Assembly: GCA_045601345.1 (NCBI GenBank)
Contig: JAZRZL010000075.1
Span: 11,040-75,039 of the forward strand
Origin: Faecousia sp.
GTDB taxonomy: Bacteria > Bacillota > Clostridia > Oscillospirales > Oscillospiraceae
Length of the DNA: 64,000 bases
Direction: 5' to 3'
Shown here: positions 8,536 through 60,029 of the stretch, piece after piece
Layout of the letters: the number at the start of each line of letters is the position of its first letter
Position numbering within the stretch: position 1 is the first letter of the stretch
Program-made: the position numbers and the translations under genes
Notes under the pieces: model-generated
What the model was told of the DNA's origin: nothing
The model's database searches: none
Seen by the model: the letters and a program-made list of their open reading frames with translations, nothing else

Positions 8536-9981
8536 TTATTCTTTATACCCGGTTACACCGTTGGCCTGCATCCAAACGAGTTTGGACTGCATCAGTGCAT
8601 CCAATGCGGCGCTTCGCTCTCTGCCGAGTTCTTCGTATTTCTTCTGGATATTGTAAAGGTCGTTATAAGTAAGGTAGGGATAATCGTCCTTGCCGAAGGT
8701 GCCATCGGGCATTTGGCAGTAATGGAGATTGCCGTCTTCCCGAATCCAGCCGTCCTTGGTGTCCTCCAAGCCCAGAAGCATCCGATCTGCCAGCTCGGTC
8801 AGCTCGGGGCGCTGGAGGATGTTGGCATATTCGTAAAGATCAAGCATTTCCGCAAGCTGGTGATTGAGAGAGCAGTGGACAGGCTTTTGGGCGGGCGCAT
8901 AATCCCACACCAGCCAGCCGCCGTTTTCGGTCTCAAAATGGCAATCCTCCGCATGGCGCAGGAAGAAATCCATATAGCGGGAGGCCGGTTCGGTCATTGC
9001 GCCGGTACGGCGGATATGCTTGGAGAAAATGAGCAGCAAATCCGAATTAAAGCGGGTATCATAGTAGCCGGGGTCAATGCCGTAGTCGGCTTTCAACCAT
9101 TCGCTGCCGGACATGGAGGGGAAATAGCCCGCTTCATTCTGCTGGAGGCTCAGGGTATCGAGCATGGCGGCACTCAGAAGCGCGGCACAGCGGGTGCCCT
9201 TGGACTGTCCCTCCATGCTGTTTGCCCCATAGGCGGCAACACAGCGATAAAGAACATTCGTCCCGGTGGGAATATAGTTGTATGCGGCGGGGAAATAATA
9301 GCCGTCATAGCACCAGCGTCCATCTCCTGCGTTGCAGTAGGTGGACCAGAGATGCATCACATTTTCTCTTTCGGTGTCAAGTAAAGCGGGCTCTCCCTCG
9401 CCCTTGACCAGTGTATAGTCGCAGACCTCCCCGGCACCCAGATAGGAGCCGTACATCTGGACACGCCAGCCCTTGCGGGATTTCTGAATGGAGAGAAAGC
9501 CTGTGCTGCCAGTCAGTTGGAGGCTGTTATTCTCCAAAGGCTTATAGCCCATGGGAGGATAATAAAAGAAATCCGCACCTTCTCCGTCAATGTACACGCA
9601 AGGGGAATTCAGCTGCATGGTATCAAGCGCCGTGGTCTTCCAGTAGGACGATTCCCGATCATAGTACCAGATGGTTCCGGCTGTACAGGGAAGCACATCC
9701 TCCCGAATCAAATGGTAGCGGGATTCCCGTTTCTGCGCACACATTCTGCCGAAGATCACGGTGCCGGTATCCATTTCATAGCACCGCTCACTTTTCGAAA
9801 GATTGCCCAAATAGGATACACTCTCGATCCCTGTTACCTGTGCCTCTCCATTGAAGCGGGAGAAAACCTCCTTCTCTGGCCGGAAGCCCCGGCGAAGAGT
9901 GCAAATCAGAAAAAGTGCCGCAACGAGCAGCACAATTGCAGTAAGAAATAAAACCCAGCGCCGTTTGTTCGAATGTTTCAT
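8536..9981 (-). CDS. N-terminally membrane-anchored protein of unknown function
   Basis: Single TM segment (WVLFLTAIVLLVAALFLICTL) and an AAGGAG RBS. The C-terminal region (SLNHQLAEMLDLYEY...) faintly recalls C5-epimerase-like alpha/alpha folds. Function not supported. Confidence 0.5.
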   Translation of the reverse strand: MKHSNKRRWVLFLTAIVLLVAALFLICTLRRGFRPEKEVFSRFNGEAQVTGIESVSYLGNLSKSERCYEMDTGTVIFGRMCAQKRESRYHLIREDVLPCTAGTIWYYDRESSYWKTTALDTMQLNSPCVYIDGEGADFFYYPPMGYKPLENNSLQLTGSTGFLSIQKSRKGWRVQMYGSYLGAGEVCDYTLVKGEGEPALLDTERENVMHLWSTYCNAGDGRWCYDGYYFPAAYNYIPTGTNVLYRCVAAYGANSMEGQSKGTRCAALLSAAMLDTLSLQQNEAGYFPSMSGSEWLKADYGIDPGYYDTRFNSDLLLIFSKHIRRTGAMTEPASRYMDFFLRHAEDCHFETENGGWLVWDYAPAQKPVHCSLNHQLAEMLDLYEYANILQRPELTELADRMLLGLEDTKDGWIREDGNLHYCQMPDGTFGKDDYPYLTYNDLYNIQKKYEELGRERSAALDALMQSKLVWMQANGVTGYKE

Positions 9982-10140: not shown

Positions 10141-10169
10141 ATCGTAGCATATGGAGTGCATCATGTCAA
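10141..10169 (-). promoter_or_regulatory. candidate promoter for the 8536-9981 gene
   Basis: Minus strand reads TTGACA, 17 nt, TACGAT. The -35 lies 18 bp outside the left end of repeat copy R1. Confidence 0.4.
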
Positions 10170-10187
10170 GAAGGGAGATCGCATAAG

Positions 10188-10454
10188 CTGTGGTAATTGA
10201 ATGTGTTAAGAAAATATGGACATCGGGTACGTTATGTCAACTGCGCACAACAGGGCAGTGGGCGGTTTTCCATGGCAGTAAATTAACAAGCCCTTGGTAG
10301 GCGGCGGATGAGGTTGGCTTCCTAAGATTGAGCGCTTCCTATGTTAGGAAGGTTTTCGGTTTTGGCAGTGCATCCAATGACCTCTTCCTTGGCTTCTACC
10401 GCCATTGGAGACGGTTCGTCTGTTCATAATTTGTTCACTCATTCAATTGCTGTG
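10188..10454 (+). mobile_element. MITE-like repeat copy R1 (outer TIR at both ends; the first core hairpin is deleted)
   Basis: Ends are GTAATTGAATGTGTTAAGAAAATATGGAC and the reverse complement GCAATTGAATGAGTGAACAAATTATGAAC. Flanked by TCGCATAAG (10179-10187) and TAGCATAAG (10455-10463). Confidence 0.75.
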
Positions 10455-10546
10455 TAGCATAAGTTTCATAAGTGCATTTTGCTGTTGAGACCATTCGGGA
10501 TTTAGGTGCAGCCGGCTGATTGCCGCGCCTCTTGTGTTTCTCTGCT

Positions 10547-17394: not shown

Positions 17395-17566
17395 GAATGG
17401 TTCTACCTTCTTTCTTAAATTTCATCCTTGCCCCGGGGAAATCCATGGTCTCATAGTGTCATTATATCATTTTTTTAAGCGTTGGCAATAAAATCCTGCG
17501 GATTGCAGAACAAAATTTTGATGAAATTAATTAAATTTCTTTTCCTTTCAAGATTGTGCCGAACAG

Positions 17567-17704
17567 CACGGTAATTGAATGCCCTGCCAAAACAGAAAAT
17601 CTTCCTAACATAGAAAGCGCTCCGTCTTAGAAAGCCAACCTCATCCGCCGCCTGCGGGCGGCACCGGCAAGGGCGGTTAACTTAACGCCATTGAAAACCG
17701 TCCC
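17567..17704 (-). repeat. repeat copy R2 (15-nt outer-TIR stub, core H, inner TIR)
   Basis: CACGGTAATTGAATG, then ...CTTCCTAACATAGAAAGCG...ACCTCATCCGCCGCCTGCGGGCGGCAC...TTAACTTAACGCCATTGAAAACCGTCCCC. Confidence 0.75.
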
Positions 17705-17808
17705 CTCCATAAAAAGGGAATCTTGGGTAGACTTCCAATCCAATATAGATTATACTTGTCATTAGTGATTCCCATTATATTACCCGGAATTAAAGGAGGA
17801 ACATCCAT

Positions 17809-18387: not shown

Positions 18388-18826
18388 AAGAGAATCAGGG
18401 ACAGAACGATTTTCTCGGCAAAACCGAAAAATAGCTCTGTCCCCGATTCTGTACGGGGAAAATATAAAAGGAGAAAATAATTGTGGGTATGTTCTTTGTT
18501 GTTTTTCCAATTCCAGAGGTCGTGTTGAAATCAGAAAAGGCAACAAAAACCAGAATCTCGGAATCTGCAGCTAAGCATTCTCTTAATAACCGCACCTCAA
18601 GAGATGGACAAAGTATAGCAAAAAATCGTCAAAAAGTCAATTGCTTTAATGGAAAAAAATGGGTAATTTATGGCAATAATTCTGTTGCGCTTGGAAACGA
18701 AGCTGTAATCCTGTTAAAAATGGATTGCAATATGCACGAACGCTTTATATATATCTGTATGCAACCTGTCTCAGTACAGGTACACGCATAGACATAGGAA
18801 AATTTTTTCAAAATCGAAACAAAAGG

Positions 18827-29698: not shown

Positions 29699-29956
29699 TT
29701 AATTGGAGAGCTTCACCTTCAATCTGACCGGTGTAGCACCGGGGGATTGGAGCAGCCGGTATTTTTTCAATCCCGTAAAGCCCCCAAAAACACCAATCAA
29801 AAGAATGACCGTACACGTGCTGCGCAGTGCATTTCGGCAAAGCCTTATAATCGCACATACCGGGCAGCCATCACCGATACAATCATGAAGTGGTTCTGCA
29901 ACCATGGATAAAAAAATCACTGCCACAAGCAACACAATCAGGATTCGCTTCCTCAT
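29699..29956 (-). CDS. small membrane protein with HDCIGDGCPVC motif (unknown function)
   Basis: ATG at 29956, 7 nt after GGAGG, overlapping the zur stop. Two predicted TM helices flank a Cys/His motif. Located between zur and znuA. Confidence 0.5.
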   Translation of the reverse strand: MRKRILIVLLVAVIFLSMVAEPLHDCIGDGCPVCAIIRLCRNALRSTCTVILLIGVFGGFTGLKKYRLLQSPGATPVRLKVKLSN

Positions 29957-30339
29957 ACAGCATCCTCCTGACATTCGCCGCAGATTCCATAGAGCACGGT
30001 GTTGGCAGGATCCACGGCAAAACGCTGGGCAGATACAATGCTCTGCAACAGCTCAACTGCGCTTTCGCCCTCGACAGGATAGATTCTGCCGCACCTCTCG
30101 CAGGACAGGTGCAGCCGATGATCTCCCTGCGCAAGCTGGAAGAAAACCTCTCTGCTTCCCGCTTTCGCGGAGCGCCTGACAAGTCCCTGTTCCTCAAGCA
30201 GCGCTAAATTGCGGTAGACAGCACTGGCGCTGATATCTTCCAGTTCGCCGGTAATCTGCTTTGCAGAAAACGCTTCATTCGGTTGCGCAGAGAAAAAATC
30301 CAGCAAGCGTCTGCGCTGCTTTGTCTGATAATTCGGCAC
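29953..30339 (-). CDS. zur: Fur-family repressor, probable Zur
   Basis: wHTH plus HLSCERCG and CGEC metal-site motifs. Start set to the GTG at 30339 (RBS GGAGGTG), because the ORF-track start (TTG at 30405) is the -35 hexamer of its own promoter. Zur assignment follows from the operon context. Confidence 0.7.
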   Translation of the reverse strand: MPNYQTKQRRRLLDFFSAQPNEAFSAKQITGELEDISASAVYRNLALLEEQGLVRRSAKAGSREVFFQLAQGDHRLHLSCERCGRIYPVEGESAVELLQSIVSAQRFAVDPANTVLYGICGECQEDAV

Positions 30340-30352: not shown

Positions 30353-30375
30353 AATTTGCGAACTTTTCGCAAATT
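30353..30375. promoter_or_regulatory. Zur/Fur-type operator: perfect 10-3-10 palindrome AATTTGCGAA-ctt-TTCGCAAATT
   Basis: Seen directly in the sequence. It lies immediately downstream of the -10 hexamer of the zur operon promoter. Confidence 0.7.
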
Positions 30376-30376: not shown

Positions 30377-30405
30377 AGTATAGCAGGATTATTTAAAAAA
30401 GTCAA
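30377..30405 (-). promoter_or_regulatory. promoter of the zur-znu operon
   Basis: Minus strand: TTGACT (30400-30405), 17 nt, TATACT (30377-30382). Confidence 0.6.
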
Positions 30406-30424
30406 CTACAGTTCTTTTTTGATG

Positions 30425-30664
30425 CACAGTAATTGAACGAGTTAAGAAAATGTGAACATTGGGCTAGACGGAAGAGGTCATTGGATGCACTGCTAAAACA
30501 GAAAATCTTCCTAACATAGAAAGCGCCCCGTCTTAGGAGGCCAACCTCATCCGCCGTCTGCGGGCGGCACCTTCCACAGCGGGGAAGGCATGGGCTGCTA
30601 ACTTAACGCCATGGAGAACCGTCTCCTTGTTACTCATATTTTCTTAACTTGTTCAATTACCGTG
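30425..30664 (-). mobile_element. MITE-like repeat copy R3 (outer TIR at both ends, core in reverse orientation)
   Basis: Left end CACAGTAATTGAACGAGTTAAGAAAATGTGAACATTGGG. Right end is the reverse complement of CACGGTAATTGAACAAGTTAAGAAAATATGAG. The core contains ACCTCATCCGCCGTCTGCGGGCGGCACCTTCC. Confidence 0.8.
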
Positions 30665-30677
30665 GGCGGAATCGCGG

Positions 30678-30706
30678 TTGACTTCGGATATTTGCTGATA
30701 TATAAT
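30678..30706 (+). promoter_or_regulatory. near-consensus promoter of the polysaccharide cassette
   Basis: TTGACT, 17 nt, TATAAT, beginning 13 bp after the R3 right end. Confidence 0.55.
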
Positions 30707-35230: not shown

Positions 35231-35254
35231 GGCCATATCGCATCTCTCAAAGAA

Positions 35255-35320
35255 ATGCTCCCTTCATGATGAACAGTGACTTTTATTTCACTGTCTTCAT
35301 AAAGGGAGCATATCATTTTC
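35255..35320 (+). terminator. long hairpin after the GT2 gene (probable terminator)
   Basis: ATGCTCCCTTCATGATGAACAGTGA / TCACTGTCTTCATAAAGGGAGCAT imperfect stem followed by ATCATTTTC. Confidence 0.4.
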
Positions 35321-35544
35321 TGGGTTGAGAGTTTTCTGCTGGTTGTCAGCCTTGGCTTTAGATGCCATTAAGGTGCGGCAGTTATCCTGCCCCGCATACA
35401 GCACGACTTTTACGGTGCTCTCTCACCGAAGTCATTACTACCTCGCTTTTCTTATATGTAATTCAGAGACAACGGTCGATCGAATTTTGCGAAAAAAATA
35501 GTGTGTGAATCGTGGCAGTGTATCAGATAACAATGGATATTCCC

Positions 35545-35836
35545 CCACATGATAATTGAATGTGTTAAGAAAAATATGAACATTGGGCAACGTTATGTCA
35601 ACTGCGTACAACCGGACAGTGGGCGGTTCTTAATGGCAGTAAATTAACAAGCCCTTGCCTTCCCCGCTGGGGAAGGTGCCGCCCGTAGGCGGCGGATGAG
35701 GTTGGCCTCCTAAGACGGAACACTTTCTATGTTAGGAAGATTTTCTGTTTTAGCAGTACATCCAATGACCTTGGCTCCTCCCGCCATTGGGGACAATTCG
35801 TTTGTTCATAATTTGTTTACGCATTCAATTACCGTG
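35545..35836 (+). mobile_element. MITE-like repeat copy R4 (full-length, outer TIR at both ends)
   Basis: CA(CAT)GATAATTGAATGTGTTAAGAAAAATATGAACATTGGG ... GTTCATAATTTGTTTACGCATTCAATTACCGTG. Flanked by GATATTCCC at 35536-35544 and 35837-35845. Confidence 0.8.
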
Positions 35837-35856
35837 GATATTCCCAAAATAGGGCT

Positions 35857-35884
35857 TGATTTTTTTACGGACAGCTGATATAAT
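35857..35884 (+). promoter_or_regulatory. promoter of tRNA-Val
   Basis: TTGATT, 16 nt ending in TGa, then TATAAT. The -10 ends 11 nt before the tRNA 5' end. Confidence 0.55.
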
Positions 35885-35895: not shown

Positions 35896-35972
35896 GGAGG
35901 ATTAGCTCAGCTGGTTAGAGCGCCTGCTTCACACGCAGGAGGTCACTGGTTCGAGTCCAGCATTCTCCACCA
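35896..35972 (+). tRNA. tRNA-Val (anticodon CAC), CCA encoded
   Basis: Manual cloverleaf: acceptor GGAGGAT/ATTCTCC, D arm GCTC-AGCTGGTTA-GAGC, anticodon stem CCTGC/GCAGG with loop TTCACAC, T arm with GGTTCGAGTCC, 3' ACCA. Confidence 0.9.
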
Positions 35973-39078: not shown

Positions 39079-39531
39079 TTAATCCTTAAATTTTCTGCTT
39101 TCCTCCACAGCTAAGGTGTCGCAGCGGTTATTATAGGGGTTATCGGCGTGACCCTTGACCCAATGGATTTGGAGGGTGTGGGTTTCCATGTGGGCAAGGA
39201 GCTGTTCCCATAGATCGACATTCAGGGCGGGTTTTTTGTCGGCTTTGCGCCAGCCGTTTTTTTGCCATGAGAAGACCCAGCCTTTTAAAATCGCGTCGGC
39301 GATATATTTGGAGTCGGTGTACAGTTCAACAGTACACGGCTCCTTTAATGCTTCCAGCGCACGCAGGACGGCGGTTAGCTCCATGCGGTTGTTGGTGGTC
39401 TGCGCCTCGCCGCCGGACAGCTCTTTTTCGTGCTCTCCGTAGCGGAGGATCGCTGCCCAGCCGCCGGGGCCGGGGTTGCCGGAGCAGGCGCCGTCCGTGT
39501 AGATGGTGACGGTTTTACGCATCCTCGCCAT
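39079..39531 (-). CDS. rnhA: ribonuclease HI
   Basis: [19 protein letters not shown]...NNRMEL...YTDSKY...[15 protein letters not shown] catalytic DEDD pattern. Start at M22 or M25 of the ORF, overlapping the gyrA 3' end. Confidence 0.85.
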
Positions 39532-42022
39532 CCTCGGCTTCTTCCCCGGTAGCAATTGCCTGTACGCTGCACACGCGGCTGCCTTCCTCGACACGCATCA
39601 GAATCACGCCCTGTGCGTCTCTGCGATAGAGGTTGACATCCTGAACCGCCATGCGGATAATCACGCCGCCTTCCTCAATCATCATGATATCATCGCTCTC
39701 GCGGACAATGCACACGCCCGCGATTTTGCCGGTGCGTTCATTGACGGCCAGATTCTTCATGCCCTTGCCGCCTCTGGATTGCGGTCTTCTGATTTCACCG
39801 TCCAGACGCAGGTATTCTTCTACCGCCGTTCTCTTGCCGTAGCCGCGCTCGGTGACGGTGAGCAATTGGGTACCCGGCTCTGCAACGCCAGCGCCAACAA
39901 TATAATCTCCCTCTGCAAGGCTCATGCCCTTCACGCCCACGGCCTCTCTGCCCATGCAGCGCACATCGCGCTCGTCAAAGCAGATGGCAAGACCGTCATG
40001 GGAGGCCAGAATGATGTTATCCTCACCGCTGCTGGCAAGAACTGCTACCAGCTCATCGCCTTCCTCTAAGCTCAATGCGCGGATGCCGCCCTTTCTGGCG
40101 GTATTCAGGGCTTGCAGCTCCAGACGCTTCACGGTGCCCTTGCGGGTGACAAAGATGAGGTAGCTCTCCTCCTCCATGGACTTGGTCAGGAGCATAGCGG
40201 TGATCTTTTCCTCCTGCTCCAGCGGGAGAATGTTGATCACAGCGGTACCTCTGGCGGTCCGGGAGGCCTCGGGAATCTGGTAGCCCTTCTTGCGGTGCAC
40301 CTTGCCGATGCTGGTGAAGAACAGGAGGTAATCATGGGTGGAGGCCACGAACAGGCTCTTGACATAGTCCTCCTCCTTCAGGCTCTGCCCGGTGACACCA
40401 CGGCCACCGCGCCGCTGGATGCGGTAGGTATCCACGTCCATGCGCTTGATATAGCCGGTGTTCGACAGGGTATAGCAGCAGTCGCGCTGTTCGATCAAAT
40501 CTTCGATATCCAGATCGTCCTCGACATCCTCAATCTGGGTGCGGCGTTCATCACCGTACTTGTCGCGGATGGCGGTCAGCTCCTCCTTGAGGATCTGGCG
40601 AACCAGACCCTTATCTGCCAGAACGGCACGGAGCCAAGCAATCTTCTTTTCCAGCTCGTCATATTCTGCCTGTAGCTTCTCGCGCTCCATGCCCTGCAAG
40701 GCCTTGAGGCGCATATCGAGAATGGTCTGCGCCTGCACTTCGCTCAGGCCAAAGCGCTCCATCAGGCGTTCCTTTGCATCATCATAGCTCTCGCGGATGA
40801 TGCGGATGACTTCATCAATGTTGTCCTGCGCAATCAGCAGACCTTCCAGAATGTGGGCGCGTTCCTCTGCCTTTTTGAGGTCATACTGGGTGCGGCGGGT
40901 GATGATCTCCTCCTGGAAACTGAGATATTCATCCAGCATATGGCGAAGAGACAGGATTCTCGGCTGGGTCTGGTCATTGACCAGTGCCAGCATATTCACC
41001 GAGAAGGTGGTTTGCAGCGCCGTCTGGGCATAGAGCCGGTTCAGAACGACCTGCGGGTTGGCATCGCGCTTGAGCTCAATGACCACGCGCATACCGTTGC
41101 GGTCGGATTCATCACGCAGGTCGGAAATGCCCTCCAGACGCTTTTCCTTCATCTGCTCTGCGATATTCTCAACCAAGGCGCGTTTATTCACCTGATAGGG
41201 CAATTCATTAATGATAATGCGGATACGGTCATTGGAGAATTCCTCCATTTCCGCACGGCCTCGGACGGTAATGCGGCCACGGCCTGTTGCATAGGCAGCG
41301 CGGATACCGCTTCGTCCTAAGATAATGCCCTTGGTGGGGAAATCCGGCCCCTGTAGATATTGCATAAGGTCACTCAGCGTGGCCTCAGGATCATCCAGAA
41401 TGCAGATGCAGGCGTTAATGACCTCGCGCAGGTTATGGGGCGGGATATTGGTTGCCATACCGACCGCGATACCGGATGAGCCATTGACTAAGAGATTCGG
41501 GAATCTGGACGGCAGGACGCGGGGTTCCAGACAGGATTCATCATAGTTCGGGTCGAAGTTGACGGTCTGCTTGTCGATATCGCGCAGCATTTCGTTGGCG
41601 ATTTTGGACATTCTGGCCTCGGTATAACGGTAAGCCGCAGGGGGGTCACCGTCCACAGAGCCGAAGTTGCCGTGTCCATCCACCAGCATATAGCGCATGG
41701 AGAAATCCTGCGCCAGACGCACCATGGCATCATAGACCGAGGTATCGCCGTGGGGATGATACTTGCCCAGCACTTCACCGACACAGGTGGCAGACTTCTT
41801 AAAGGGCTTATCCGAGGTCAGGTTATTTTCATACATGGCGTAGAGAATGCGGCGGTGGACGGGCTTGAGGCCGTCGCGCACATCCGGCAGTGCTCTTGCC
41901 ACGATAACGGACATTGCATATTCAATAAAGGAGGATTCCATTTCCTTCACGAGGTCATTGCTCACAATGGTCTGCTCGGGGAAGGTAATATCCTCCGGCT
42001 TATAATCCTTTGCTTTTGCCAA
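39515..42022 (-). CDS. gyrA: DNA gyrase subunit A
   Basis: [29 protein letters not shown] and the active-site region [10 protein letters not shown]. 835 aa. Confidence 0.97.
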
Positions 42023-42037
42023 ATGGGTTCCCTCCTA

Positions 42038-43990
<1,953 letters not shown>

Positions 43991-44012
43991 CTAATTAAGA
44001 GATTTTCATAAA

Positions 44013-44264
44013 TTATTCCTGTTTCAGTCTTTTTTCAAGCGTTGCAGGGGAAAATTGACTGAAATATATACGATTCATACCAAATTCCGAGGTCAGGAGG
44101 AAGGATTTCGGCAGCTCCTGCGTAGTTTCAGCAGTCTCCCCGCGCTCCTCCGCCCCTCTGAGAAATTTTCTTGTACGGGCAGACCAAGTGGTGTTGTCCA
44201 AATCGAAAATACCGATAATGCTTGAATCCCGCACCGCCATATCGCCGCCGATAGGTAAATACAT
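44013..44264 (-). CDS. DUF370 protein (RemB-like)
   Basis: 83 aa with an IIGIFDLD motif. Occupies the conserved Firmicutes slot between recF and gyrB. Confidence 0.7.
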   Translation of the reverse strand: MYLPIGGDMAVRDSSIIGIFDLDNTTWSARTRKFLRGAEERGETAETTQELPKSFLLTSEFGMNRIYFSQFSPATLEKRLKQE

Positions 44265-44282
44265 CGTGTCTTCTCCTTACAA

Positions 44283-44595
44283 GACAGAGGACTGTTCTCA
44301 ATGGCAGTAAGTTAACAGCCCCTGCCTTCCCCTCTGGGGAAGGTGCCGCCCGTAGGCGGCGGATGAGGTTTCATTCCTGAAACTGCGTGCTTTCTATGTT
44401 AGGAAGGTTTTCCGTTTTATCTGCGCGTCCATACCTCATCAGTCTCGCTTCGCTCGCCAGCTTCCCCAGAGGGGAAGCCTTTGACCTCATCAGTCTCGCT
44501 TCGCTCGACAGCTTCCCCAAAGGGGAAGCCTTAGCGCGGGCTATGTTAGGAAGTTTTCCACAGCCACCAACTTAACGCCATTAAAAACTGTCTTC
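44283..44595 (+). repeat. repeat copy R6 (inner TIR at both ends; module D duplicated in tandem, 2 x 51 bp at 44433-44534)
   Basis: GACAGAGGACTGTTCTCAATGGCAGTAAGTTAACAGCCCC ... CAACTTAACGCCATTAAAAACTGTCTTC. The right end overlaps the recF stop and its last codons. Confidence 0.8.
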
Positions 44596-45699
44596 TGTCC
44601 TGTTAATTTTTCCGTTTTCGACTACGTAGGCGCGGCCTATGGAGGACAGGCGATCCTTTTCGCAGCAGGTGATGAAGACCTGTCCCTGTCCGAGGCGGTT
44701 CAGGACAAAATCCTGCCGTCCGGCATCCAGCTCGGATAGTACATCATCTAGAAGCAGGATCGGTTCCTCCTCCAAAAGACGGCGAAGCAGCTCCCGCTCG
44801 CTTAATTTGATGGAGATCGCTGCCGTGCGGGTCTGACCCTGTGAGCCGAAGCTTTTGATGCTCATGCCGTCCAACATGGCATTTAGATCGTCCTTGTGCG
44901 GCCCCGACAGGCATTGTCCGGTTTCCTGCTCGGCTCTGGCATGGGAGGCCTGATGCGCCTTCAGCCAGCCGTAGAGCGTCTCCGGGGGCGCGAAGGGGTC
45001 TTCTATGGTAGATACCGTCTGATATTCCAGATTCAAAAGCTCCCTGCCGCCGGAAAATTCCTTGTGGCAGCTCTGGGCAGCTTCCTCCAGTGCCTTAATG
45101 TAACGCGCCCGGTAATAGATGATGGTCGCGCCGTAACGCGCCATTTGTTCGTTATATTCCGGCAAAATCTCCAAAAGACCGGGCTGCCATTGCCAATCCT
45201 TCAAAATTCTACTTTTTTGTTCCAGACATCTGCCATATTCCTGCAAGGCGGAGGCGTAGACCGGGCGAAGTTGACATAATGTTCTGTCAATCATCCGCCG
45301 TCTGGCCTGTGACCCGGCGCGGAGCACACCCAAATCCTCCGGGCAAAAGAGAACTACGGGTAAAATACCCGAAATCTCCGCAGCAGACTTCTTTTTGACC
45401 TCGTTCACATAGAGCTGCCTTGACCTTCTCCCGGAAAACAGCACTGCCCTAAGGCGCTGCTCCCGCTGGGCGCTGTCAATTTTAGCGCTGATTTCAGCAA
45501 ATTCTGCACCGATGCGCACCAACTCCGCGCCTGTGCGGGTGCGGAAGGACTGCCCCTGTGAGAGATAGACTATAGCCTCCAGAAGATTGGTTTTTCCCTG
45601 TGCATTATCCCCGACCAGAAGATTAACGCCGGGGTGAAATTCGCACGTTGTATGCCGGTAGTTGCGCCAATCGCAGAGGTGCAGCTCCTTGAGCCTCAT
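44581..45699 (-). CDS. recF: DNA replication/repair protein RecF
   Basis: Walker A GDNAQGKTNLLEA and the C-terminal LLLDDVLSELD signature. Located in the dnaN-yaaA-recF synteny. Confidence 0.93.
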   Translation of the reverse strand: MRLKELHLCDWRNYRHTTCEFHPGVNLLVGDNAQGKTNLLEAIVYLSQGQSFRTRTGAELVRIGAEFAEISAKIDSAQREQRLRAVLFSGRRSRQLYVNEVKKKSAAEISGILPVVLFCPEDLGVLRAGSQARRRMIDRTLCQLRPVYASALQEYGRCLEQKSRILKDWQWQPGLLEILPEYNEQMARYGATIIYYRARYIKALEEAAQSCHKEFSGGRELLNLEYQTVSTIEDPFAPPETLYGWLKAHQASHARAEQETGQCLSGPHKDDLNAMLDGMSIKSFGSQGQTRTAAISIKLSERELLRRLLEEEPILLLDDVLSELDAGRQDFVLNRLGQGQVFITCCEKDRLSSIGRAYVVENGKINRTEDSF

Positions 45700-45941
45700 G
45701 CCTCTGTGACCCGGAAGGTCTGGCCGAGGCAGGTCACGCGGTTATCCGGGCGAAGCTTTTTGCCGCGCTGGAGGCATACCGCACCATCTACCAAAACCTC
45801 CCCATCCTGAATCCACTGCTTGGCCATGCCCCCGGTGGGTGCAGCGCCGCAGAGCTTGAGAAAGCTTTCGAGCTTGATATATTCTGTAGAAATCGGAATT
45901 TCGATATCCGATAAATGCCGAACCTTCACATGAACCTTCAT
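45696..45941 (-). CDS. yaaA: S4-domain RNA-binding protein YaaA
   Basis: 81 aa with IKLESFLKLCG...GGMAKQWIQDGEVLVDG. AAGGAGG RBS. Lies between dnaN and recF. Confidence 0.8.
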   Translation of the reverse strand: MKVHVKVRHLSDIEIPISTEYIKLESFLKLCGAAPTGGMAKQWIQDGEVLVDGAVCLQRGKKLRPDNRVTCLGQTFRVTEA

Positions 45942-45956
45942 GCATTTGCCTCCTTA

Positions 45957-47072
45957 TCAGATCCCGGATTTGATGCGCACCGGGAGCACCATATATCTGA
46001 AATCCTCACCGCTTCCCTCGCAAGGCGTGAGAATAATGGGACTGAGGAAGTTGGACATCTCCAGCATGACCTCGCCCGTGGGAACAACCTTGAGCGCATC
46101 CAAAAGATAGCGGCAATTGAAGCCAATCTCCAAATCCTTGCCATCGCCAGAGAGGCTGCAAACATCATGTGCCGAGCCGACGGTGGTTACCGTGCGGAAA
46201 TCCACAATATTTTCCCCGAAGACACAGCGCACCGGGCTTTTCATCTTTTCCGAAACGATCAGACTGACGCGCTCAATGCTTGCAGTAAGGGAGGCAACAT
46301 TGGCGCAGAGCTTTATGGGGTTAAATTCCGGCATAACCCGCCGCCAATCCATGAATTCACCCTCCAGAATACGGCTGACCAGCGTGACCTTGCCAACCTC
46401 AAAGAGAATATGCCGTGAGCCAAGGGTGAACACGACTTCCTCCTCTGTGTCCTCCAGAATTTTTTCCAGCTCGCGCAGGGCATCGGCAGGTACTACGAAT
46501 TTTAAAAGTCTCCCGGTTGGCTCTGTCGTATGGAAGCTGCGCTTTGCCAGACGGAAGCCATCTACGGCAACCATCGTAATAGCGTTTTCCTCTACCTCAA
46601 TTAGGCAGCCGGTGAGAATGGGTCTGGCCGGATTCTGGGAGGAGGCAAAAAGAGTACCAGAGATCAGCTCGCGCAGAGCTTTTTGCGGAATGGAAATGCC
46701 GTTGGTGAACTCCACATCAGGCAGCTCCGGATAGTCAGCAGCATCCTCTGCCATAATGGTGAAGGAGGCAATACCGCTGCGCAAGGTGGCCTTTAAGCTA
46801 TCATTCACGCTGATGGTAACGGTATCATCGGGCATTTTGCGGATAATATCAAAAAACAGTCTGGCTGGCATGACGCATTCGCCGCAATCCTGAATTTCGG
46901 CATCGACCCGGATGGTAACGCCGGTCTCCATATTGAAGCCGGTCAGCTGCAAATCATTGCCAGCGCGTACATAAACGCCCTCCAGTGCGCTAATTGCACA
47001 CTTTGGTGAGACAGATCGGATTGCAATTGCAATCGCAGAAACCAGTGTGTTTTTTTCACAGGTAAATTTCAT
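45957..47072 (-). CDS. dnaN: DNA polymerase III beta sliding clamp
   Basis: Start at the ATG at 47072 (MKFTCEKNTL...). Three-domain clamp length. Located downstream of dnaA. Confidence 0.93.
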   Translation of the reverse strand: MKFTCEKNTLVSAIAIAIRSVSPKCAISALEGVYVRAGNDLQLTGFNMETGVTIRVDAEIQDCGECVMPARLFFDIIRKMPDDTVTISVNDSLKATLRSGIASFTIMAEDAADYPELPDVEFTNGISIPQKALRELISGTLFASSQNPARPILTGCLIEVEENAITMVAVDGFRLAKRSFHTTEPTGRLLKFVVPADALRELEKILEDTEEEVVFTLGSRHILFEVGKVTLVSRILEGEFMDWRRVMPEFNPIKLCANVASLTASIERVSLIVSEKMKSPVRCVFGENIVDFRTVTTVGSAHDVCSLSGDGKDLEIGFNCRYLLDALKVVPTGEVMLEMSNFLSPIILTPCEGSGEDFRYMVLPVRIKSGI

Positions 47073-47110
47073 ACCCAAACCTCTCTTTCCTCCTCCCTAA
47101 AGGGAGGGAG

Positions 47111-47301
47111 GATAAATAAAAAGTAACAGTAGTAGTAATAACTTATGTGGACAAATCGGAAAAACCGTTGCAGTATAAGAAAAATTGCAAAATCGGGATG
47201 TGGAAAAGCACATGGAGTTTCCACAGGGCAAAATGCAGCAGCTTTATCCATAAAAAGTTTTAACAAATATCTTTCAACTTTCCACAGCCCCATGTGGAAT
47301 A
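47111..47301. other. oriC candidate: AT-rich unwinding region, TAG/TAA trio run and six DnaA-box-like 9-mers
   Basis: AT-rich stretch at 47111-47145 containing TAGTAGTAATAA (47130-47141). Boxes: TGTGGACAA 47146, TGTGGAAAA 47199, GTTTCCACA 47217, TTATCCATA 47244, CTTTCCACA 47278, TGTGGAATA 47293 (1-2 mismatches to TTATCCACA). Confidence 0.6.
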
Positions 47302-47310
47302 CCAAGACAA

Positions 47311-47472
47311 GGGGCGGTTTTCTATTTTATCTGCGCGTCCATACCTCATCCGTCTCGCTTCGCTCGACAGCTTCCCCGGAGGGGAAGCCTTAGCCCCTGC
47401 CTTCCCCTCTGGGGAAGGTGCCGCCCGTAGGCGGCGGATGAGGTTGGCCTCCTAAGACAGAGTGCTTCCTAA
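47311..47472 (+). repeat. repeat copy R7 (permuted: module D precedes core H; no TIRs)
   Basis: ...ATACCTCATCCGTCTCGCTTCGCTCGACAGCTTCCCCGGAGGGGAAGCCTTAGCCCCTGCCTTCCCCTCTGGGGAAGGTGCCGCCCGTAGGCGGCGGATGAGGTTGGCCTCCTAAGA. Confidence 0.75.
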
Positions 47473-47488
47473 TGGGCTTTTTCAAAGC

Positions 47489-48802
47489 TCAGAGGCGGTT
47501 ATTGATATTGGAGGTGATATCTTGCAAGGTATTCTTCATGCCAGACTTTGGATCAGAGAGTAGAGCTTCGACCTTACGAATGCTGTGAATAACGGTAGCG
47601 TGGTCTCGACCGAATTCCTTTCCGATGTCCGGCAGGCTGCATTGGGTCAGATTACGGATCAGATACATGGCAATCTGCCGTGCCTCCGCAGTTCCTTTAT
47701 TTCGCAGAGAACCGCGAAGAATATGTTCCTCAATGTTGAAATAGCGGCTGACTTCGGAAATAATGAGCGCCGCCGTGGGCAAAGAGGAGGCACCTTCTTT
47801 GTACATATCCTTAATGGCGCGTGATACGCTGGCCACATCCAGTTCCATATTGTCGAGTGTGTGGTAGGCCATGACCTTTTTGACCGTGCCTTCGATCTGG
47901 CGGATGTTGGTGGTAATATTTTCAGCGATGTAGGAACAGACCTCGTCGGAAATTCCGATGCCAAGGCTCATGGCCTTATTTTTAATAATGGCCATACGGG
48001 TTTCATAATCTGGCGGCTGAATATCGGCAATCAGACCCCATTCAAAGCGGGTTTTCAGACGATCCTCCAGCTTCAGCATGGCAGAGGGCGGCTGGTCAGA
48101 GGTGAGGACGATCTGCTTGTGATTTTCATACAGGGCGTTAAAGGTATTAAAGAATTCCTCCTGCGTGGAATCCTTGCCGGCAATAAAATGAATATCGTCC
48201 ATGAGGAAGAGATCAGCCTGACGGAATTTATTACGGAATTCCATATTTTTTCCCTCGCGGAGCGCTTCAATCATTTCATTGGTAAATTGATCGCCGCGGA
48301 TATAGACAATGTTGAAATCGGGGTGTTTCTCGTGAATTGCAGCGGCAATGGCATAGAGCAAATGGGTTTTTCCAAGGCCGGATTGGCCATAGATGAAAAG
48401 CGGATTATATGCGTCGGCGGGCATTTTGGCAACAGCTAGGGCAGCGCCGTGGGCAAAGCGGTTGGAAGAGCCGACAACAAAGCTTTTGAAGGTGAATTGG
48501 GGATTTTTTATGAGAAAATCAGGATGGTTACTCGTCTGCTTACGCAGGTTCACCTCTTCCTCACCGAGAAGCTCAATTTCCACCTGCATATCAAAAAGAA
48601 GCTGCATTGCATCCTGAAGGAGGGGCACCCAGCGGCGGCTGATGGTTTCGCGCCGGAACGCGGAGGGGGATAGAATGGTTAGACACTGTTCGGTAAGCGA
48701 AATTACCTCGGTATCATCGAACCAGGTTGCAACAACGGTGGAGGAGAGCTGCTGTTCAAGATAGCTGAGAACCTTCGCCCAGACATAGGCGGTTGAATAC
48801 AT
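47489..48802 (-). CDS. dnaA: chromosomal replication initiator DnaA
   Basis: Start trimmed to the ATG at 48802 (MYSTAYVWAKV...) after AAGGAG. AAA+ GQSGLGKTHLL and the C-terminal DNA-binding region DHATVIHSIRKV. Confidence 0.95.
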   Translation of the reverse strand: MYSTAYVWAKVLSYLEQQLSSTVVATWFDDTEVISLTEQCLTILSPSAFRRETISRRWVPLLQDAMQLLFDMQVEIELLGEEEVNLRKQTSNHPDFLIKNPQFTFKSFVVGSSNRFAHGAALAVAKMPADAYNPLFIYGQSGLGKTHLLYAIAAAIHEKHPDFNIVYIRGDQFTNEMIEALREGKNMEFRNKFRQADLFLMDDIHFIAGKDSTQEEFFNTFNALYENHKQIVLTSDQPPSAMLKLEDRLKTRFEWGLIADIQPPDYETRMAIIKNKAMSLGIGISDEVCSYIAENITTNIRQIEGTVKKVMAYHTLDNMELDVASVSRAIKDMYKEGASSLPTAALIISEVSRYFNIEEHILRGSLRNKGTAEARQIAMYLIRNLTQCSLPDIGKEFGRDHATVIHSIRKVEALLSDPKSGMKNTLQDITSNINNRL

Positions 48803-48861
48803 AAAATTCTCCTTTCCGCACATCGTAAGGGGCAATTTTGCTATAAAATAACTCACTATAT

Positions 48862-48890
48862 ATTCTAACATAAACAGAGAAAAAGAACAA
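48862..48890 (-). promoter_or_regulatory. candidate dnaA promoter
   Basis: Minus strand: TTGTTC, 17 nt, TAGAAT. Confidence 0.35.
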
Positions 48891-49115: not shown

Positions 49116-52100
49116 TTAGCGGGCGTTAAAGATACGATGCAGAATCGCGGCAACCTGAGCACGCTCAGCGGAGCACTGCGGATCCAGTGTGATACGCTCA
49201 CCTTCCAGCACACCGTTCATGTAGCCATGATAGACCATCCAGGTCATCGCATCCTTAGCAAAATTGCTGACGGAGCTGGCATCTTCGAAGTCCAGCACAA
49301 AGTCCGCATCAAAGCTGCCATCCATGCCCTTGGTCTGGGCGTAACGATAGAGAATGGTAGCCAGCTGTTCGCGGGTGATGTCCTGATCGGGCTTGAAGAC
49401 ATTGCCGGGATAGCCTTCAATAATCTCATTTTCGGCAGCCCAGATGACAGCATCGGTGAAGTATTCGTCCACAGGAACATCCTGGAAGGGATTTGCCTTG
49501 CCGGCAACGCTCGGTGTACCCTCCATGCGGTAGAGCACGGTGACGAGCATAGCACGGGTCAGTGCGGTGTTGGGGCTGAAGGTGGTATCGGAGAAGCCGA
49601 CCATCAGGCCATTGTTCCATGCATATGCCACATCATCGTAGAACCAATCGCCTTCCTTGACATCGGCAAAGGTCATGGCCGGACGGCGGGTTACATTGAC
49701 CGTGTAATCCGTCGTGGTGTTGCCGTCCTCGGAGGTAACACTAACAGTGAACTGGTTCTCGCCAATTTCCAGAGCCTTGGTGCCTGCACCGGCAATCTTG
49801 GAGCCGTCATAGGCAGTCGTAGCCTGCAGGTTGATGCTGCTTACATCATTGGGAACAACTGCGGTATAGTTGAGCGTATCGGCGCTGAAAGCGGGAGAGA
49901 GAACGCCGCCTCTGAAGGAGAGGTTGGAAAGCTCAGCCTCCGAGTTCTGGAGGATATGCCAGCCATTGTACCAGAGGCTTGCTTCGCGGAAGAAGAGCTG
50001 ACGGAGAGCCTCAACGCCGCCCCAGGTGGCGCGGGTATACAGACGGCCCTGTGCTTCGCCGCTGACAACTCTCTCAGCAGCAATGCGCATATCTCTTACA
50101 GCCTCAATGCCAGCCAGACCCTGCATGGGGTTGGGGGCATCCCACATCGGGCTGTACATCTCGCGCTTGTCGGTGGTTTCCTGCCAGGAGTGGCCGGTCA
50201 TGAAGTACACGCCGGATACATCGCTGGCGCTGATCTTCACATCAGGATCATAGAAGCCTTCTGCGAACTTGAGAAGCTTGCCTTCCATCTTCTTGATGTC
50301 GCGCAGGAAGCTGGCAACAGCCTGCTTGCCGGAGCCAAAGTTAAAGACATATTTGCCCTGACCGACAGCATCGCCGGAAACCAGATAGCTGTTGTTCAGT
50401 GCTTTCTGATCCAGATTGTCATACAGGTAGCACATGGAGCCATCGGTGTGACCGACGACCTCGATGCACTCGAAGGTGATGGCCTTGCCGCCAAACTTGG
50501 GGCCAACGAGCGTATCGCCATCGGCAAGCCGCGTGATGTTATAGTTTGCAAAGGTAGCGGTCACGGCATCGTTCACCGGCCAGTAAAGCTTGCAGTCGGG
50601 GAACTGGGAAACCTTGCCGTAATGGTCGCCGTGTGCGTGGGTAACGACAACTTCAATCGGGAGATCGGCAGGACGACCCATGGCGTTCAGGATATCCTTC
50701 ACGCACTGGCGCAGATCGCCATCGCCCATGCCAGAGTCAAACAGCATGGCCTTGTCTTCACCGGCAAAGAGATACATATCGTCATCACCGGGGGTACCCT
50801 TGCAGTCACGAATGCGATAAACGCCTTCTTCAATTTCCTGCACATCATACTGCGCCCACAGCGGGGTAGCATGGATGGTCAGGGTGTAGGTGGTTGCCTT
50901 CTCGCCAGTGCCAAGGTTGATGGTGAAAACATTGTCGCCTTCCTTTAGCTCTGCGGGGAAGGGGATGGGGTATCTGCACGCAACACCGTTGATGGTGAAG
51001 GTGGCAAGGTTGGGATCTGTAGGCTCGGGCATAATGTAGACGACCTTGCTGGTGCGGCTGCTCCAGTCGATGGTTGCGGAAAGCTCACGGTTGGAGAGCA
51101 TAGCAGGATCGAACTTTGCATCACAGGGTACGATGGGCGTATCCAGATCAATCTTATAAGGCTCCAGACGGCCGCCCTTGAAGGAGGAGATAAAGACCTC
51201 ATTCAGCGTTGCAGCATTCGTGGGAACGGACGGCTTGGTGCTGAAGGAATAGGTCTCTGCCTTGATGTCGGGCAGGGGATAGAGGGTGTTATCGTTGATG
51301 GTTCTGATGTAGATCGTGTAGACCTTGGAGGTCTCGGAGGCTGCATCGCTGATGCTCAGCTTCAGCACATTGACACCGGGAATGCCGCTGTCGAGTGCGG
51401 GATCGTCAGAGGCCAGAATGTTGACCTTGTAGCCCAGTGCACCGTGGCCGCTGACGGAGCCGAGGGTATCGGTAATGTCCTTGCCGTTCAGGGTGACGGC
51501 AATATCGGCATCCTCACCGAAGGCTTCTGCCATGAGAACCAGCGGGTCTGCATCGCTGACTGTGCAGGTCTGGGCGGTGGAGAGGGCGGTGTAGCTCTTG
51601 ATCAGGTTGGCCTTGGGTGCGGGGTCAGTCTCGAACAGGTAGGCATCGAGCAGGGTGGCGGGAGTCACCATGTCGGCGATTTTGGTGTTGGTATTGAAGT
51701 CGTAAGCACCGGCAGGATTGTACCACAGACCGGCAACACCGTAGGACAGCTCTCTGTAGTATGCGCTGGCACTGTTGGTGGTGAATTCGCCAATGAAGGG
51801 GTTGTCCATGACCAGCGTGGAGGCAACATACATATCCTCAACATAGATCTTGCCAACCTCATGGGTTGCTCTGTCGCGCTCCTGCCAGCTATGGCCGGTG
51901 AGCAGGGTAAGGCTATTGAGACCTTTTACGCGGTTCCAAACCTTTTCCATATCGCGGCTGAACAGGGGCATGATGCAGTTGCTGTTGGTGTGGTTAAAGA
52001 CATAGCTGCCCTGACCAATGGCATCGCCGCCAACAAGGTAGCTTTCCTGGCACTGGCCACCGATCTCGTTGTCATAGAGATAAACCATGTGGCCAACCGT

Positions 52101-53108
52101 ATGGGTACGAACCGTCATAACCTCAAAGCTCAAAGGACCATTGCCAAAGTCGGGGCCTACGATCGTATCGCCTGGGAAGACCATCTGGAGGTCGGTGTTG
52201 GGGTCGTTATACAGCGTGTTGGAAAGGTTGCTGGAATCGCCGATGCCCCAGTAGATGGTGCCCTTGCCGGGGCCTCTGCCGGTGAGACGGTATTCCTCGG
52301 GGGTGGAGGTGTTAAGCATACCGTAGTGGTCACCGTGGTTATGGGTGAGGGCAACGTCAATCGGGAATTCATCGGGATTTTCGATGCCGAATTTGTTGGT
52401 CAGGATGTCATAGATGGTCTTCTTCAGATCACCGCCGCGACGGCTGTTATCACCGCCACCGTTGAGGGCATCAAAGAGAATGGCGCGATCCTTGCCGATG
52501 AAGATGGCAGCGTCCTCAGCAGAGGTAAAACCGTTGATGCTGGTGAACTGATAGACACCGCTAATCAGCTTGCCGTCAGAACCCACGTTTTCTTCGAGGA
52601 TCGTGGTTCTGATCTGGTCATACATATCCTGATTGATGAAGGTCAGGGTGTAGGTCTTCGTGGTCTTGCCATCACCGGAGGTGACTTCAATCACGCAGGG
52701 CTGCGCAACAGCTTCCTGACCCTTCCTGACAGTGCCAAACTCCATTCTGTAGGGGCAGTTGAATTCAGTGGGTTCGCCATTGATCACAAAGGTGGCATTT
52801 TCGTCATAGGCCACGGGCTTGATATAGATGGCTCTGTCACCGGAGGACATATTCTTCATGTCCACATTCATCTCGTAGTCATACTTGCCGGATTCGATGG
52901 GCTGCTCCAGAGGGATATCAACGAACTCAATGCGGGAGCCTTTGAAGCCGAACAGCTCAATGTCAATCAGCTCTGCGCTGACACCGGCTGCAATTGTGGC
53001 GGGTTTTGCATCCTCAATAGGCGCTGCAAAGATGGGCTGTACGAGGCTGCAAAGCAGGACAATACTGATTAAAATGGAAATAACTTTTCTAAATTGCTTG
53101 TTTTTCAC
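49116..53108 (-). CDS. SLH-anchored surface protein with two cadherin-like/MBL-fold hydrolase modules
   Basis: GTG start at 53108 after AGAGGAG. Signal peptide present. Two HxHxDH motifs (THNHGDHYG, THAHGDHYG), each preceded by beta-sandwich segments ending ...TYTLT. Three C-terminal SLH motifs. Confidence 0.75.
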   Translation of the reverse strand: MKNKQFRKVISILISIVLLCSLVQPIFAAPIEDAKPATIAAGVSAELIDIELFGFKGSRIEFVDIPLEQPIESGKYDYEMNVDMKNMSSGDRAIYIKPVAYDENATFVINGEPTEFNCPYRMEFGTVRKGQEAVAQPCVIEVTSGDGKTTKTYTLTFINQDMYDQIRTTILEENVGSDGKLISGVYQFTSINGFTSAEDAAIFIGKDRAILFDALNGGGDNSRRGGDLKKTIYDILTNKFGIENPDEFPIDVALTHNHGDHYGMLNTSTPEEYRLTGRGPGKGTIYWGIGDSSNLSNTLYNDPNTDLQMVFPGDTIVGPDFGNGPLSFEVMTVRTHTVGHMVYLYDNEIGGQCQESYLVGGDAIGQGSYVFNHTNSNCIMPLFSRDMEKVWNRVKGLNSLTLLTGHSWQERDRATHEVGKIYVEDMYVASTLVMDNPFIGEFTTNSASAYYRELSYGVAGLWYNPAGAYDFNTNTKIADMVTPATLLDAYLFETDPAPKANLIKSYTALSTAQTCTVSDADPLVLMAEAFGEDADIAVTLNGKDITDTLGSVSGHGALGYKVNILASDDPALDSGIPGVNVLKLSISDAASETSKVYTIYIRTINDNTLYPLPDIKAETYSFSTKPSVPTNAATLNEVFISSFKGGRLEPYKIDLDTPIVPCDAKFDPAMLSNRELSATIDWSSRTSKVVYIMPEPTDPNLATFTINGVACRYPIPFPAELKEGDNVFTINLGTGEKATTYTLTIHATPLWAQYDVQEIEEGVYRIRDCKGTPGDDDMYLFAGEDKAMLFDSGMGDGDLRQCVKDILNAMGRPADLPIEVVVTHAHGDHYGKVSQFPDCKLYWPVNDAVTATFANYNITRLADGDTLVGPKFGGKAITFECIEVVGHTDGSMCYLYDNLDQKALNNSYLVSGDAVGQGKYVFNFGSGKQAVASFLRDIKKMEGKLLKFAEGFYDPDVKISASDVSGVYFMTGHSWQETTDKREMYSPMWDAPNPMQGLAGIEAVRDMRIAAERVVSGEAQGRLYTRATWGGVEALRQLFFREASLWYNGWHILQNSEAELSNLSFRGGVLSPAFSADTLNYTAVVPNDVSSINLQATTAYDGSKIAGAGTKALEIGENQFTVSVTSEDGNTTTDYTVNVTRRPAMTFADVKEGDWFYDDVAYAWNNGLMVGFSDTTFSPNTALTRAMLVTVLYRMEGTPSVAGKANPFQDVPVDEYFTDAVIWAAENEIIEGYPGNVFKPDQDITREQLATILYRYAQTKGMDGSFDADFVLDFEDASSVSNFAKDAMTWMVYHGYMNGVLEGERITLDPQCSAERAQVAAILHRIFNAR

Positions 53109-53298: not shown

Positions 53299-53317
53299 GA
53301 ATTAATGCATCTCGGGT

Positions 53318-53643: not shown

Positions 53644-53675
53644 TTGTCTTGCAGCGAAATTTGGAAAGAGAATGG

Positions 53676-60019: not shown

Positions 60020-60029
60020 GTTTTGGCGG

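Follow-up and report, generated by a model that had tools for sequence, protein, structure and literature searches.

Outer ends of a MITE-like intergenic repeat in Faecousia recur at a fixed distance upstream of predicted promoters

Within a 64-kb stretch of a contig from a Faecousia species (here called the window, meaning the whole of the DNA that was analysed), there are approximately 11 copies of a modular intergenic repeat, some of which are bounded by outer terminal inverted repeats (TIRs). Nine outer ends are present at six loci. Six of these ends are accompanied by a strong predicted promoter that points away from the repeat, and at four of them the tip of the TIR lies exactly 18 nt upstream of the -35 hexamer. 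The best-supported reading, to which we assign roughly an even chance, is that the element makes a position-specific choice of target approximately 10 bp upstream of the -35 hexamer, after which selection acts on the resulting insertions. The evidence base for this reading is a single window, in which four of the nine outer ends are concordant.

The complete copies of the repeat, designated R1, R3 and R4, are approximately 240-290 bp in length and carry outer TIRs of about 45 nt, the consensus of which reads CCACGGTAATTGAACGAGTTAAGAAAATGTGAACATTGGG from the tip inward. Within the outer TIRs reside GC-rich hairpin modules and a second, inner inverted repeat (containing GGTTYTCAATGGCAGTAAGTTAAC). 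Each of the three complete copies has a 27-nt TIR core at either end, on opposite strands, where none would be expected by chance. R1 and R4 each have a second variant of the outer TIR (type b) at one end, and its sequence diverges from that of type a beyond the first 16 nt. The target duplication is 8 bp in length and agrees at eight of eight positions for R4, seven of eight for R1 and none of eight for R3. The copies that carry at least one outer end, or part of one, are the following.

R1, 10188-10455: 268 bp, with TIR matches; flanked by the duplication CGCATAAG (10180-10187) and AGCATAAG (10456-10463), identical at 7/8 positions, (C/A)GCATAAG.
R2, 17566-17706: a truncated copy that keeps 16 nt of a single outer TIR, joined to the core.
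R3, 30424-30665: 242 bp; a GC-rich hairpin core and remnants of the inner TIR lie between outer TIRs; no open reading frame (ORF) and no duplication.
TIR core matches of R3: 30429-30455, plus strand, 0 mismatches; 30634-30660, minus strand, 2 mismatches.
R4, 35545-35837: 293 bp, with TIR matches; perfect 8-bp duplication ATATTCCC at 35537-35544 and 35838-35845.
R8, 53317-53648: left outer TIR only, with a diverged tip that was set by ungapped alignment.
R10, 59399-60020: three tandem 167-nt core units (59428-59929, 92-96% identical); right outer TIR only.

R3 and its relatives are lineage-specific, non-autonomous transposon copies resembling MITEs (miniature transposable elements with inverted repeats). 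This identity follows because the sequences combine TIRs, duplications and multiple copies with the absence of any transposase domain from the window ORFs scanned against Pfam. R1, R3 and R4 are too short for a transposase gene, and R8, R9 (an inner-TIR-only copy listed below) and R10 hold only short spurious ORFs. Thus, the features typical of MITEs are present: a length below about 500 bp without a transposase ORF, TIRs, a target duplication (in two of the three complete copies) and multiple dispersed copies. The left edge of R10 overlaps the stop-codon region of a gene encoding a 1312-aa dockerin/cohesin protein, which ends at 59422.

Promoters were located by a window-wide scan of both strands, in which a strong site was defined as a sigma-70-type match at 10 or more of 12 consensus positions. 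The conserved GNGTTAAG/GCGTAAAC block served as the reference for each TIR, with the tip taken to lie 15 nt before it; at R1 and R4, the boundaries given by the duplications fall at the same position. Each of the six promoters flagged next to outer ends matches the consensus at 10-11 of 12 positions.

R1 left end, 10169-10141, minus strand: TTGACA-17-TGnTACGAT, gap 18 nt, reading toward the gene at 8536-9981.
R3 left end, 30405-30377, minus strand: the zur promoter, TTGACT-17-TGnTATACT, gap 18 nt (30406-30423).
R3 right end, 30678-30706, plus strand: TTGACT-17-TATAAT, 11/12, gap 12 nt (30666-30677).
R4 right end, 35856-35884, plus strand: the tRNA-Val promoter, TTGATT-17-TGnTATAAT, gap 18 nt; tRNA at 35896-35972.
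R8 left end, 53298-53270, minus strand: TTGACA-17-TGnTATCAT, 11/12, gap 18 nt, reading toward the SLH/cadherin-like gene at 49116-53192.
R10 right end, 60030-60058, plus strand: the metG promoter, TTGATT-17-TATAAT, gap 9 nt; metG at 60124-62094 (Pfam tRNA-synt_1g).

The promoter at the right end of R3 serves an operon containing Polysacc_synt/MurJ-like flippase and glycosyltransferase genes (Pfam), and R4 sits 58 nt upstream of the tRNA gene. All six promoters had been noted in a first-pass annotation of this DNA, and each was found where that annotation had placed it, pointing away from the element. The closeness of ends and promoters that it described stands, but its gaps of 18, 19, 13, 20, 19 and 10 bp become 18, 18, 12, 18, 18 and 9 nt (in the order listed above) once the tips are placed in register, and the spacer of 16 given for the tRNA-Val promoter measures 17. 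For R2, which was said to face only a weak TTGAAA, such a hexamer is indeed present 14 nt away, but a strong site, TTGCCA-16-TGnTATAAT (17488-17461, minus strand), lies 77 nt from the end.

The four promoters with an 18-nt gap share a 17-nt spacer and a TGn-extended -10 hexamer. At R1 and R4, where the insertion boundaries are fixed by the duplications, the 18 nt consist of the 8-bp duplication and exactly 10 nt leading to the -35 hexamer. The 18-mers themselves belong to the target DNA rather than to the element, because the four ends have no sequence in common across this interval; the target 8-mers are likewise unrelated, and no motif is visible either in the duplications or in the 10-nt linkers. 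A constant distance to a landmark, combined with unrelated duplicated sequence, is therefore observed at four of the six promoter-adjacent ends, which is a small sample. Three of these ends carry a type-a TIR (the left ends of R1, R3 and R8) and one a type-b TIR (the right end of R4), and since both types show the same gap the 18-nt spacing is independent of orientation.

Several resemblances among promoter-like sequences at or within the repeats were also observed. The R1 and R8 promoters (10141-10172 and 53270-53301) have in common an 11-nt block around the -35 hexamer, TTCTTGACATG, and resemble each other in their extended -10 hexamer (TGCTAYNAT), and they may be co-regulated or paralogous; their 18-nt gaps are unrelated despite the common block. 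The right flanks of R3 and R10 (30666-30690 and 60021-60045) share GCGGTTGA around the -35 hexamer, together with a TCGG located at an identical offset, 19-22 nt from the TIR tip; these are the two promoter-adjacent ends that deviate from the 18-nt gap. Finally, an internal promoter-like TTGACA-16/17-CATATT is present on the minus strand in both R1 (10213-10240) and R4 (35573-35601). It faces out across the type-a TIR, and its direction at R1 would match that of the flanking host promoter.

To what extent might these arrangements arise by chance? The window contains 33 strong sites on both strands, only 10 of which occupy DNA that is neither coding nor part of an element, and six of these 10 strong intergenic promoters have an outer end no more than 18 nt upstream. 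Only 4.7% of the allowed non-coding positions fall within 20 nt upstream of a strong promoter. Under a null model of random intergenic positions that spare promoters and 5' untranslated regions (UTRs), the probability that six or more of the nine ends lie near a promoter, or five of the six loci, is ~8e-7 to 1e-4; the comparison with random intergenic placement that had been suggested earlier thus rejects that null within the window. For at least four identical gaps among six, simulation gives P = 1.5e-3 when gaps are drawn from 0-20 nt and 4.5e-4 when they are drawn from 0-30 nt. With the free space specific to each site (~95 nt at R1 and ~270 nt at R4, but only ~10-25 nt at R3 and R10), the value is ~1e-4, and the overall range is ~1e-5 to 1.5e-3.

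An internal control is provided by copies that carry inner ends only and no outer TIR. None of the 13 such ends in the window has a strong outward promoter within 150 nt; these copies occupy 5'UTRs, the spacers between convergent genes, or gene 3' ends. Two of them lie downstream of promoters.

R9, 53726-53966: an inner-TIR-only copy downstream of TTGCGA-17-TATACT (53676-53704), and hence inside the 5'UTR of an aminotransferase gene.
Inner-TIR-only copy, 62706-62842: downstream of TTGACT-17-TATAAT (62491-62519), in the 5'UTR of the gene starting at 62868.

This 5'UTR placement is the opposite of that seen for the outer-TIR ends.

The order of events can be established at the left flank of R3, where the promoter of the zur operon has counterparts in related genomes. 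The following features define this locus.

zur, 29953-30339, minus strand: a 128-aa regulator of the Fur family that starts with GTG; Pfam FUR hit; 100% identical to database protein P0241.
Perfect 10-3-10 palindrome, 30353-30375: AATTTGCGAA-CTT-TTCGCAAATT, immediately following the -10 hexamer of zur.

The gene is the first of zur-znuA-znuC-znuB (with ZnuA, ABC_tran and ABC-3 products downstream), and the label zur used in the first-pass annotation is reasonable given a Fur-family protein followed by these three genes. From its position, the palindrome is likely to be the Zur operator, and the alignment columns that it occupies are fully or almost fully conserved across the five relatives that were compared (loci L111-L115, with 81-88% Zur identity and the same operon). 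An alignment of the upstream regions reveals that the -35 hexamer, the 17-nt spacing, TATACT, the palindrome and the ribosome-binding site are kept in the window and in these five relatives, and that the element is not present upstream of zur in any of the five. Homology between the window and the relatives stops ~15-18 nt upstream of the zur -35 hexamer, at about the TIR tip. Because the promoter is conserved in five element-free relatives, it is older than the element. The element-free state of this region also conforms to the mobility expected of a MITE, the relatives in question being different species rather than strains.

Targeted insertion just upstream of promoters was one of three options raised in the first-pass annotation. 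It is the best supported of the three, with a basis of four ends in one window: four 18-nt gaps, two duplications 10 nt from a -35 hexamer, the presence of the zur promoter in relatives and the contrasting placement of the inner-TIR-only copies. We propose that the promoters next to the ends are ordinary sigma-A promoters of the host and would predate the insertions, and that the transposase of the family may pick its target by a ruler-like geometry. An 8-bp staggered cut made 10 bp upstream of the -35 hexamer would fall at approximately -46 to -53 from the transcription start, assuming that the hexamer spans -35 to -30, and would leave the TIR tip 18 nt from the hexamer, at ~-54. The core promoter and its proximal upstream region would stay intact, such that selection could tolerate the insertion, and the spot upstream of a promoter might in this way serve as a safe haven in a gene-dense genome.

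Two candidate landmarks can be considered for such a ruler. One is the TTGAC-like hexamer, which might be read directly: the TIR holds a TTGAAC 9 nt from its own tip, with the polarity of a -35 hexamer, so that the flank of a promoter could resemble a weak pseudo-end of the element. The other is DNA at the upstream edge of the RNA polymerase footprint, where the enzyme binds or bends it. Both are plausible and equally compatible with the data. That a bacterial TIR transposon or MITE uses a promoter as its integration landmark, whether through the -35 hexamer or through bound RNA polymerase, and cuts exactly 10 bp upstream, is a claim that we advance tentatively and consider somewhat short of evenly balanced. 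It would be a bacterial analogue of the safe-haven strategy of Ty3 and TRE5-A, two retroelements discussed below. By such a route, the element could have colonised the upstream edge of many strong promoters, which would correspond to the six of 10 found in the window.

A number of observations weigh against the proposal of position-specific insertion. The statistic for identical gaps was chosen after the data had been seen, and it rests on four ends in one window. The tip of R8, one of these four, has diverged and was placed by ungapped alignment alone. The gaps of 12 nt at the right end of R3 and 9 nt at the right end of R10 deviate from 18, and the left end of the truncated R2 is a counter-example, with its strong promoter 77 nt distant. 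The promoters are predictions from consensus. R3 has no duplication, and its two flanks may stem from separate events or from a misjoin. The window holds neither a transposase domain, among the ORFs scanned, nor an autonomous partner element. Further copies of the family were not found in the genome, metagenome, viral, plasmid and phage collections scanned: the TIR pattern TAATTGAAYRNGTTAAGAAAA matched 34 times in genome_contigs, 64 times in metagenome_contigs and once in viral_contigs, in every case as a single chance hit without other motifs of the element, while the core pattern had no match in viral_contigs and the TIR region no BLAST match in plasmids or phages.

Among the alternatives, the one that survives best holds that insertion is nearly random and that survivorship alone shapes the observed distribution, with copies in genes, core promoters and 5'UTRs being purged and 18 nt representing either a coincidence or a lower bound set by upstream sequence requirements. 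We regard this as unlikely, despite several points in its favour. Prokaryotic MITEs are generally intergenic, according to a review (PMC10969869). Without the element at R3, the two divergent -35 hexamers would be only ~22-30 nt apart, and R10 fills the whole space from the upstream stop codon to the metG -35 hexamer, so that three of the six ends had to lie close to a promoter; that the distance is not always 18 is also shown by the 12-nt and 9-nt gaps. Survivorship, which the first-pass annotation had offered as its third option, therefore accounts for proximity at R3 and R10, but not for the identical spacing at R1 and R4, where ~95 nt and ~270 nt of featureless space were available and both duplications nevertheless lie exactly 10 nt from the -35 hexamer. 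Even with gaps held to 0-20 nt, four identical values are obtained with P <= 1.5e-3, and the inner-TIR-only copies, which are of similar size and composition, are not found beside promoters.

A second alternative is that the outer TIR functions as a cis-regulatory module to which, for example, an activator, a nucleoid protein or a regulator derived from a transposase would bind. Such a module would function solely at a given distance or helical phase relative to the -35 hexamer, and copies at 18 nt would for that reason have been retained by selection. The conserved TIR blocks TAATTGAAC and GTTAAGAAAAT are centred at ~-64 and ~-76, roughly the range from which class I activators act; the fixed spacing and the common architecture of all four 18-nt promoters (17-nt spacer and TGn-extended -10) are also what such coupling would predict. 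The relatives that lack the TIR, however, have a zur promoter whose hexamers and operator are unchanged, and the TIR is thus not needed for the promoter. Moreover, the genes served (zur, tRNA-Val, an SLH surface protein and an unknown protein) have no obvious common regulation, and two TIR types that differ beyond their first 16 nt both occur at 18 nt. The more specific suggestion of the first-pass annotation, that the A/T-rich TIR contributes an UP-like element, is unsupported by the geometry. With the tip at ~-54, the canonical UP region (-38 to -59) is mostly host DNA and not TIR; the stretch from -36 to -53 comes from the host and varies in sequence, and the A/T-rich block of the TIR lies at ~-71 to -81. 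On balance, functional coupling appears slightly less probable still than survivorship.

That the promoters belong to the element, either because its true ends lie beyond the TIRs or because it carries outward promoters in the manner of Correia elements, is very improbable and has been largely refuted: the outward TTGACA-16/17-CATATT near the type-a ends of R1 and R4 and the 11 nt common to the R1 and R8 promoters would fit this idea, but the flagged promoters lie wholly outside the TIR tips, the R1 and R4 duplications fall between TIR and promoter, the 18-nt gaps and promoter spacers are wholly different between copies, and the zur promoter is orthologous to those of element-free relatives.

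A separate candidate, the targeting of spaces downstream of terminators, was ruled out, the nearest upstream hairpins being ~85 nt from R1 and ~230 nt from R4.

The R3 locus deserves separate comment. As first described, R3 is wedged between two divergent promoters in this sequence. In the relatives, however, the upstream neighbour of zur is a HEAT-repeat gene or a tRNA, and not the flippase operon. Because R3 in addition lacks a duplication (0/8) and its two ends are of the same TIR variant, its junction may be the product of recombination between two copies of the element, or an assembly misjoin across the repeat. Neither event affects the distances between ends and promoters.

Comparisons at the other loci were aimed at empty sites and yielded none for R1, R4, R8 or R10, synteny with the relatives being poor. 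For R4 through R7, relatives were approached via the glycogen phosphorylase gene, at which synteny is lost, a V-ATPase operon or tRNA-Ala being found upstream instead; for R8 and R10, approached via the aminotransferase gene, the neighbouring genes differ. The outer TIR was not found at the aminotransferase loci of these relatives, where other GC-rich repeats and inner-TIR-like fragments are present. GC-rich modular repeats and fragments of this kind (for example AACTTAATGCCATTGAGAACCGTCCCC) occur upstream of the aminotransferase gene at positions 1-268 of locus L116 and 2560-2900 of locus L035; the L116 contig ends 268 nt upstream of the gene, just past the fragments. Because inner-TIR-like fragments occur in the closest relatives, the inner and core modules would appear to be older and more widespread than the outer TIR. 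An Rfam search of the free DNA to the left of R4 returned nothing credible.

The repeat shares many properties with known prokaryotic MITEs. As reviewed in 2024 (PMC10969869), elements such as Correia (CREE) of Neisseria, ERIC, RUP, MITEAba12 and BrickBuilt are likewise short, non-coding, multi-copy and intergenic, with TIRs, duplications in younger copies, hairpin-rich interiors and nested or tandem copies; the section of that review on insertion-site preferences contains no mention of targeting by distance to a promoter. The composite build observed here, in which outer TIRs surround an inner-TIR element, sets the repeat apart from these elements. In Correia-type MITEs the promoter hexamers are internal or make up hybrids at the end of the element, whereas here complete promoters lie outside, at a fixed 18 nt, and the zur promoter predates the element; none of the six flagged promoters has hexamers inside the element or its TIR. 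The target duplication of Correia elements is TA, in contrast to the 8 bp found here.

Other mobile elements are known to lie next to promoters or to integrate at set distances from landmarks. The insertion sequences (IS) IS1, IS2, IS257 and ISAba1 carry an outward -35 hexamer in their inverted repeat that creates or activates promoters, and in these cases, too, a transposon end is situated immediately upstream of the promoter region of a gene. Such elements form hybrid promoters, whereas both hexamers are host DNA in the present case and the zur promoter is conserved in element-free relatives. Among retroelements, Ty3 integrates at RNA polymerase III (Pol III) start sites, TRE5-A of Dictyostelium approximately 48 bp upstream of tRNA genes, and Ty1 upstream of Pol III genes. 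The likeness lies in the set distance upstream of a transcription landmark and in the use of a safe haven in a compact genome; those retroelements are tethered to the Pol III machinery, whereas the repeat described here is a bacterial DNA element with TIRs, its landmark would be a sigma-A -35 hexamer, and any tethering is purely inferred. In bacteria, Tn7 inserts at attTn7, certain IS elements target repetitive extragenic palindromic (REP) sequences, and group IIC introns insert after terminators. Elements of the IS1202 group are described as lying 5 bp from XerC sites in PMC10132070. In all of these systems, as proposed here, the site is set by distance to a recognisable sequence or protein landmark and not by the duplicated bases, but the landmark is a recombination site, a gene end, a REP or a terminator, and the elements are autonomous with known recombinases.

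The genomic setting of the repeats is that of a gut Clostridium-like chromosome segment with a G+C content of 51.7%. The closest relatives of the window proteins are proteins of metagenome-assembled genomes labelled Ruminococcaceae, Oscillospiraceae or Candidatus Faecousia, and database proteins 100% identical to window ORFs include P0001 as well as the P0241 noted above. Gene products recognised by Pfam include SLH, cohesin/dockerin and Spo0A proteins, and in an Rfam scan of the window tRNA-Val alone passes the gathering threshold. The neighbourhood of a replication origin occupies 39515-48871 on the minus strand (dnaA, dnaN, a small S4-like ORF, recF, gyrB and gyrA) and contains two further copies of the repeat.

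R6, 44283-44600: between recF and gyrB.
R7, 47318-47472: in the dnaA-dnaN spacer, with DnaA-box-like words TGTGGAAA/TTTCCACA nearby (~47190-47300).

Elsewhere in the window, minus-strand genes for the small (3785-4495) and large (2541-3803) subunits of a phage terminase adjoin spo0A (4627-5412); the terminase genes, at 2541-4495, are probably a prophage remnant. A promoter-like TTGACT-17-TGnTATACT at 18612-18640 on the minus strand has the same hexamers as the zur promoter; it faces the 3' end of a DUF1836 gene and has no obvious gene downstream on that strand. Downstream of the glycosyltransferase operon, at 35249-35317, lies a long hairpin (containing TTTTATTTCACTGTCT and CATAAAGGGAGCATATC) that closely resembles a hairpin upstream of zur in the relatives (L111 ~1380-1450 and L113 ~5500-5570), and it looks like another small terminator-like repeat family common to the genus.

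Our literature searches on bacterial MITEs and IS elements returned no precedent for integration at a set distance from a promoter. Should the 18-nt rule fail, the present observations would reduce to the familiar fact that surviving MITEs reside in intergenic DNA. Should it hold genome-wide, it would represent, as far as these searches and our knowledge go, an undescribed kind of target choice by a bacterial transposable element. The transposase implied would be one able to recognise the -35 hexamer or RNA polymerase, with possible use as a tool for promoter-proximal insertion, and the outer ends would mark real promoters in uncultured gut Clostridia from sequence alone. The rule would also reveal a route by which a gene-dense genome can reach a high density of repeats without harm.

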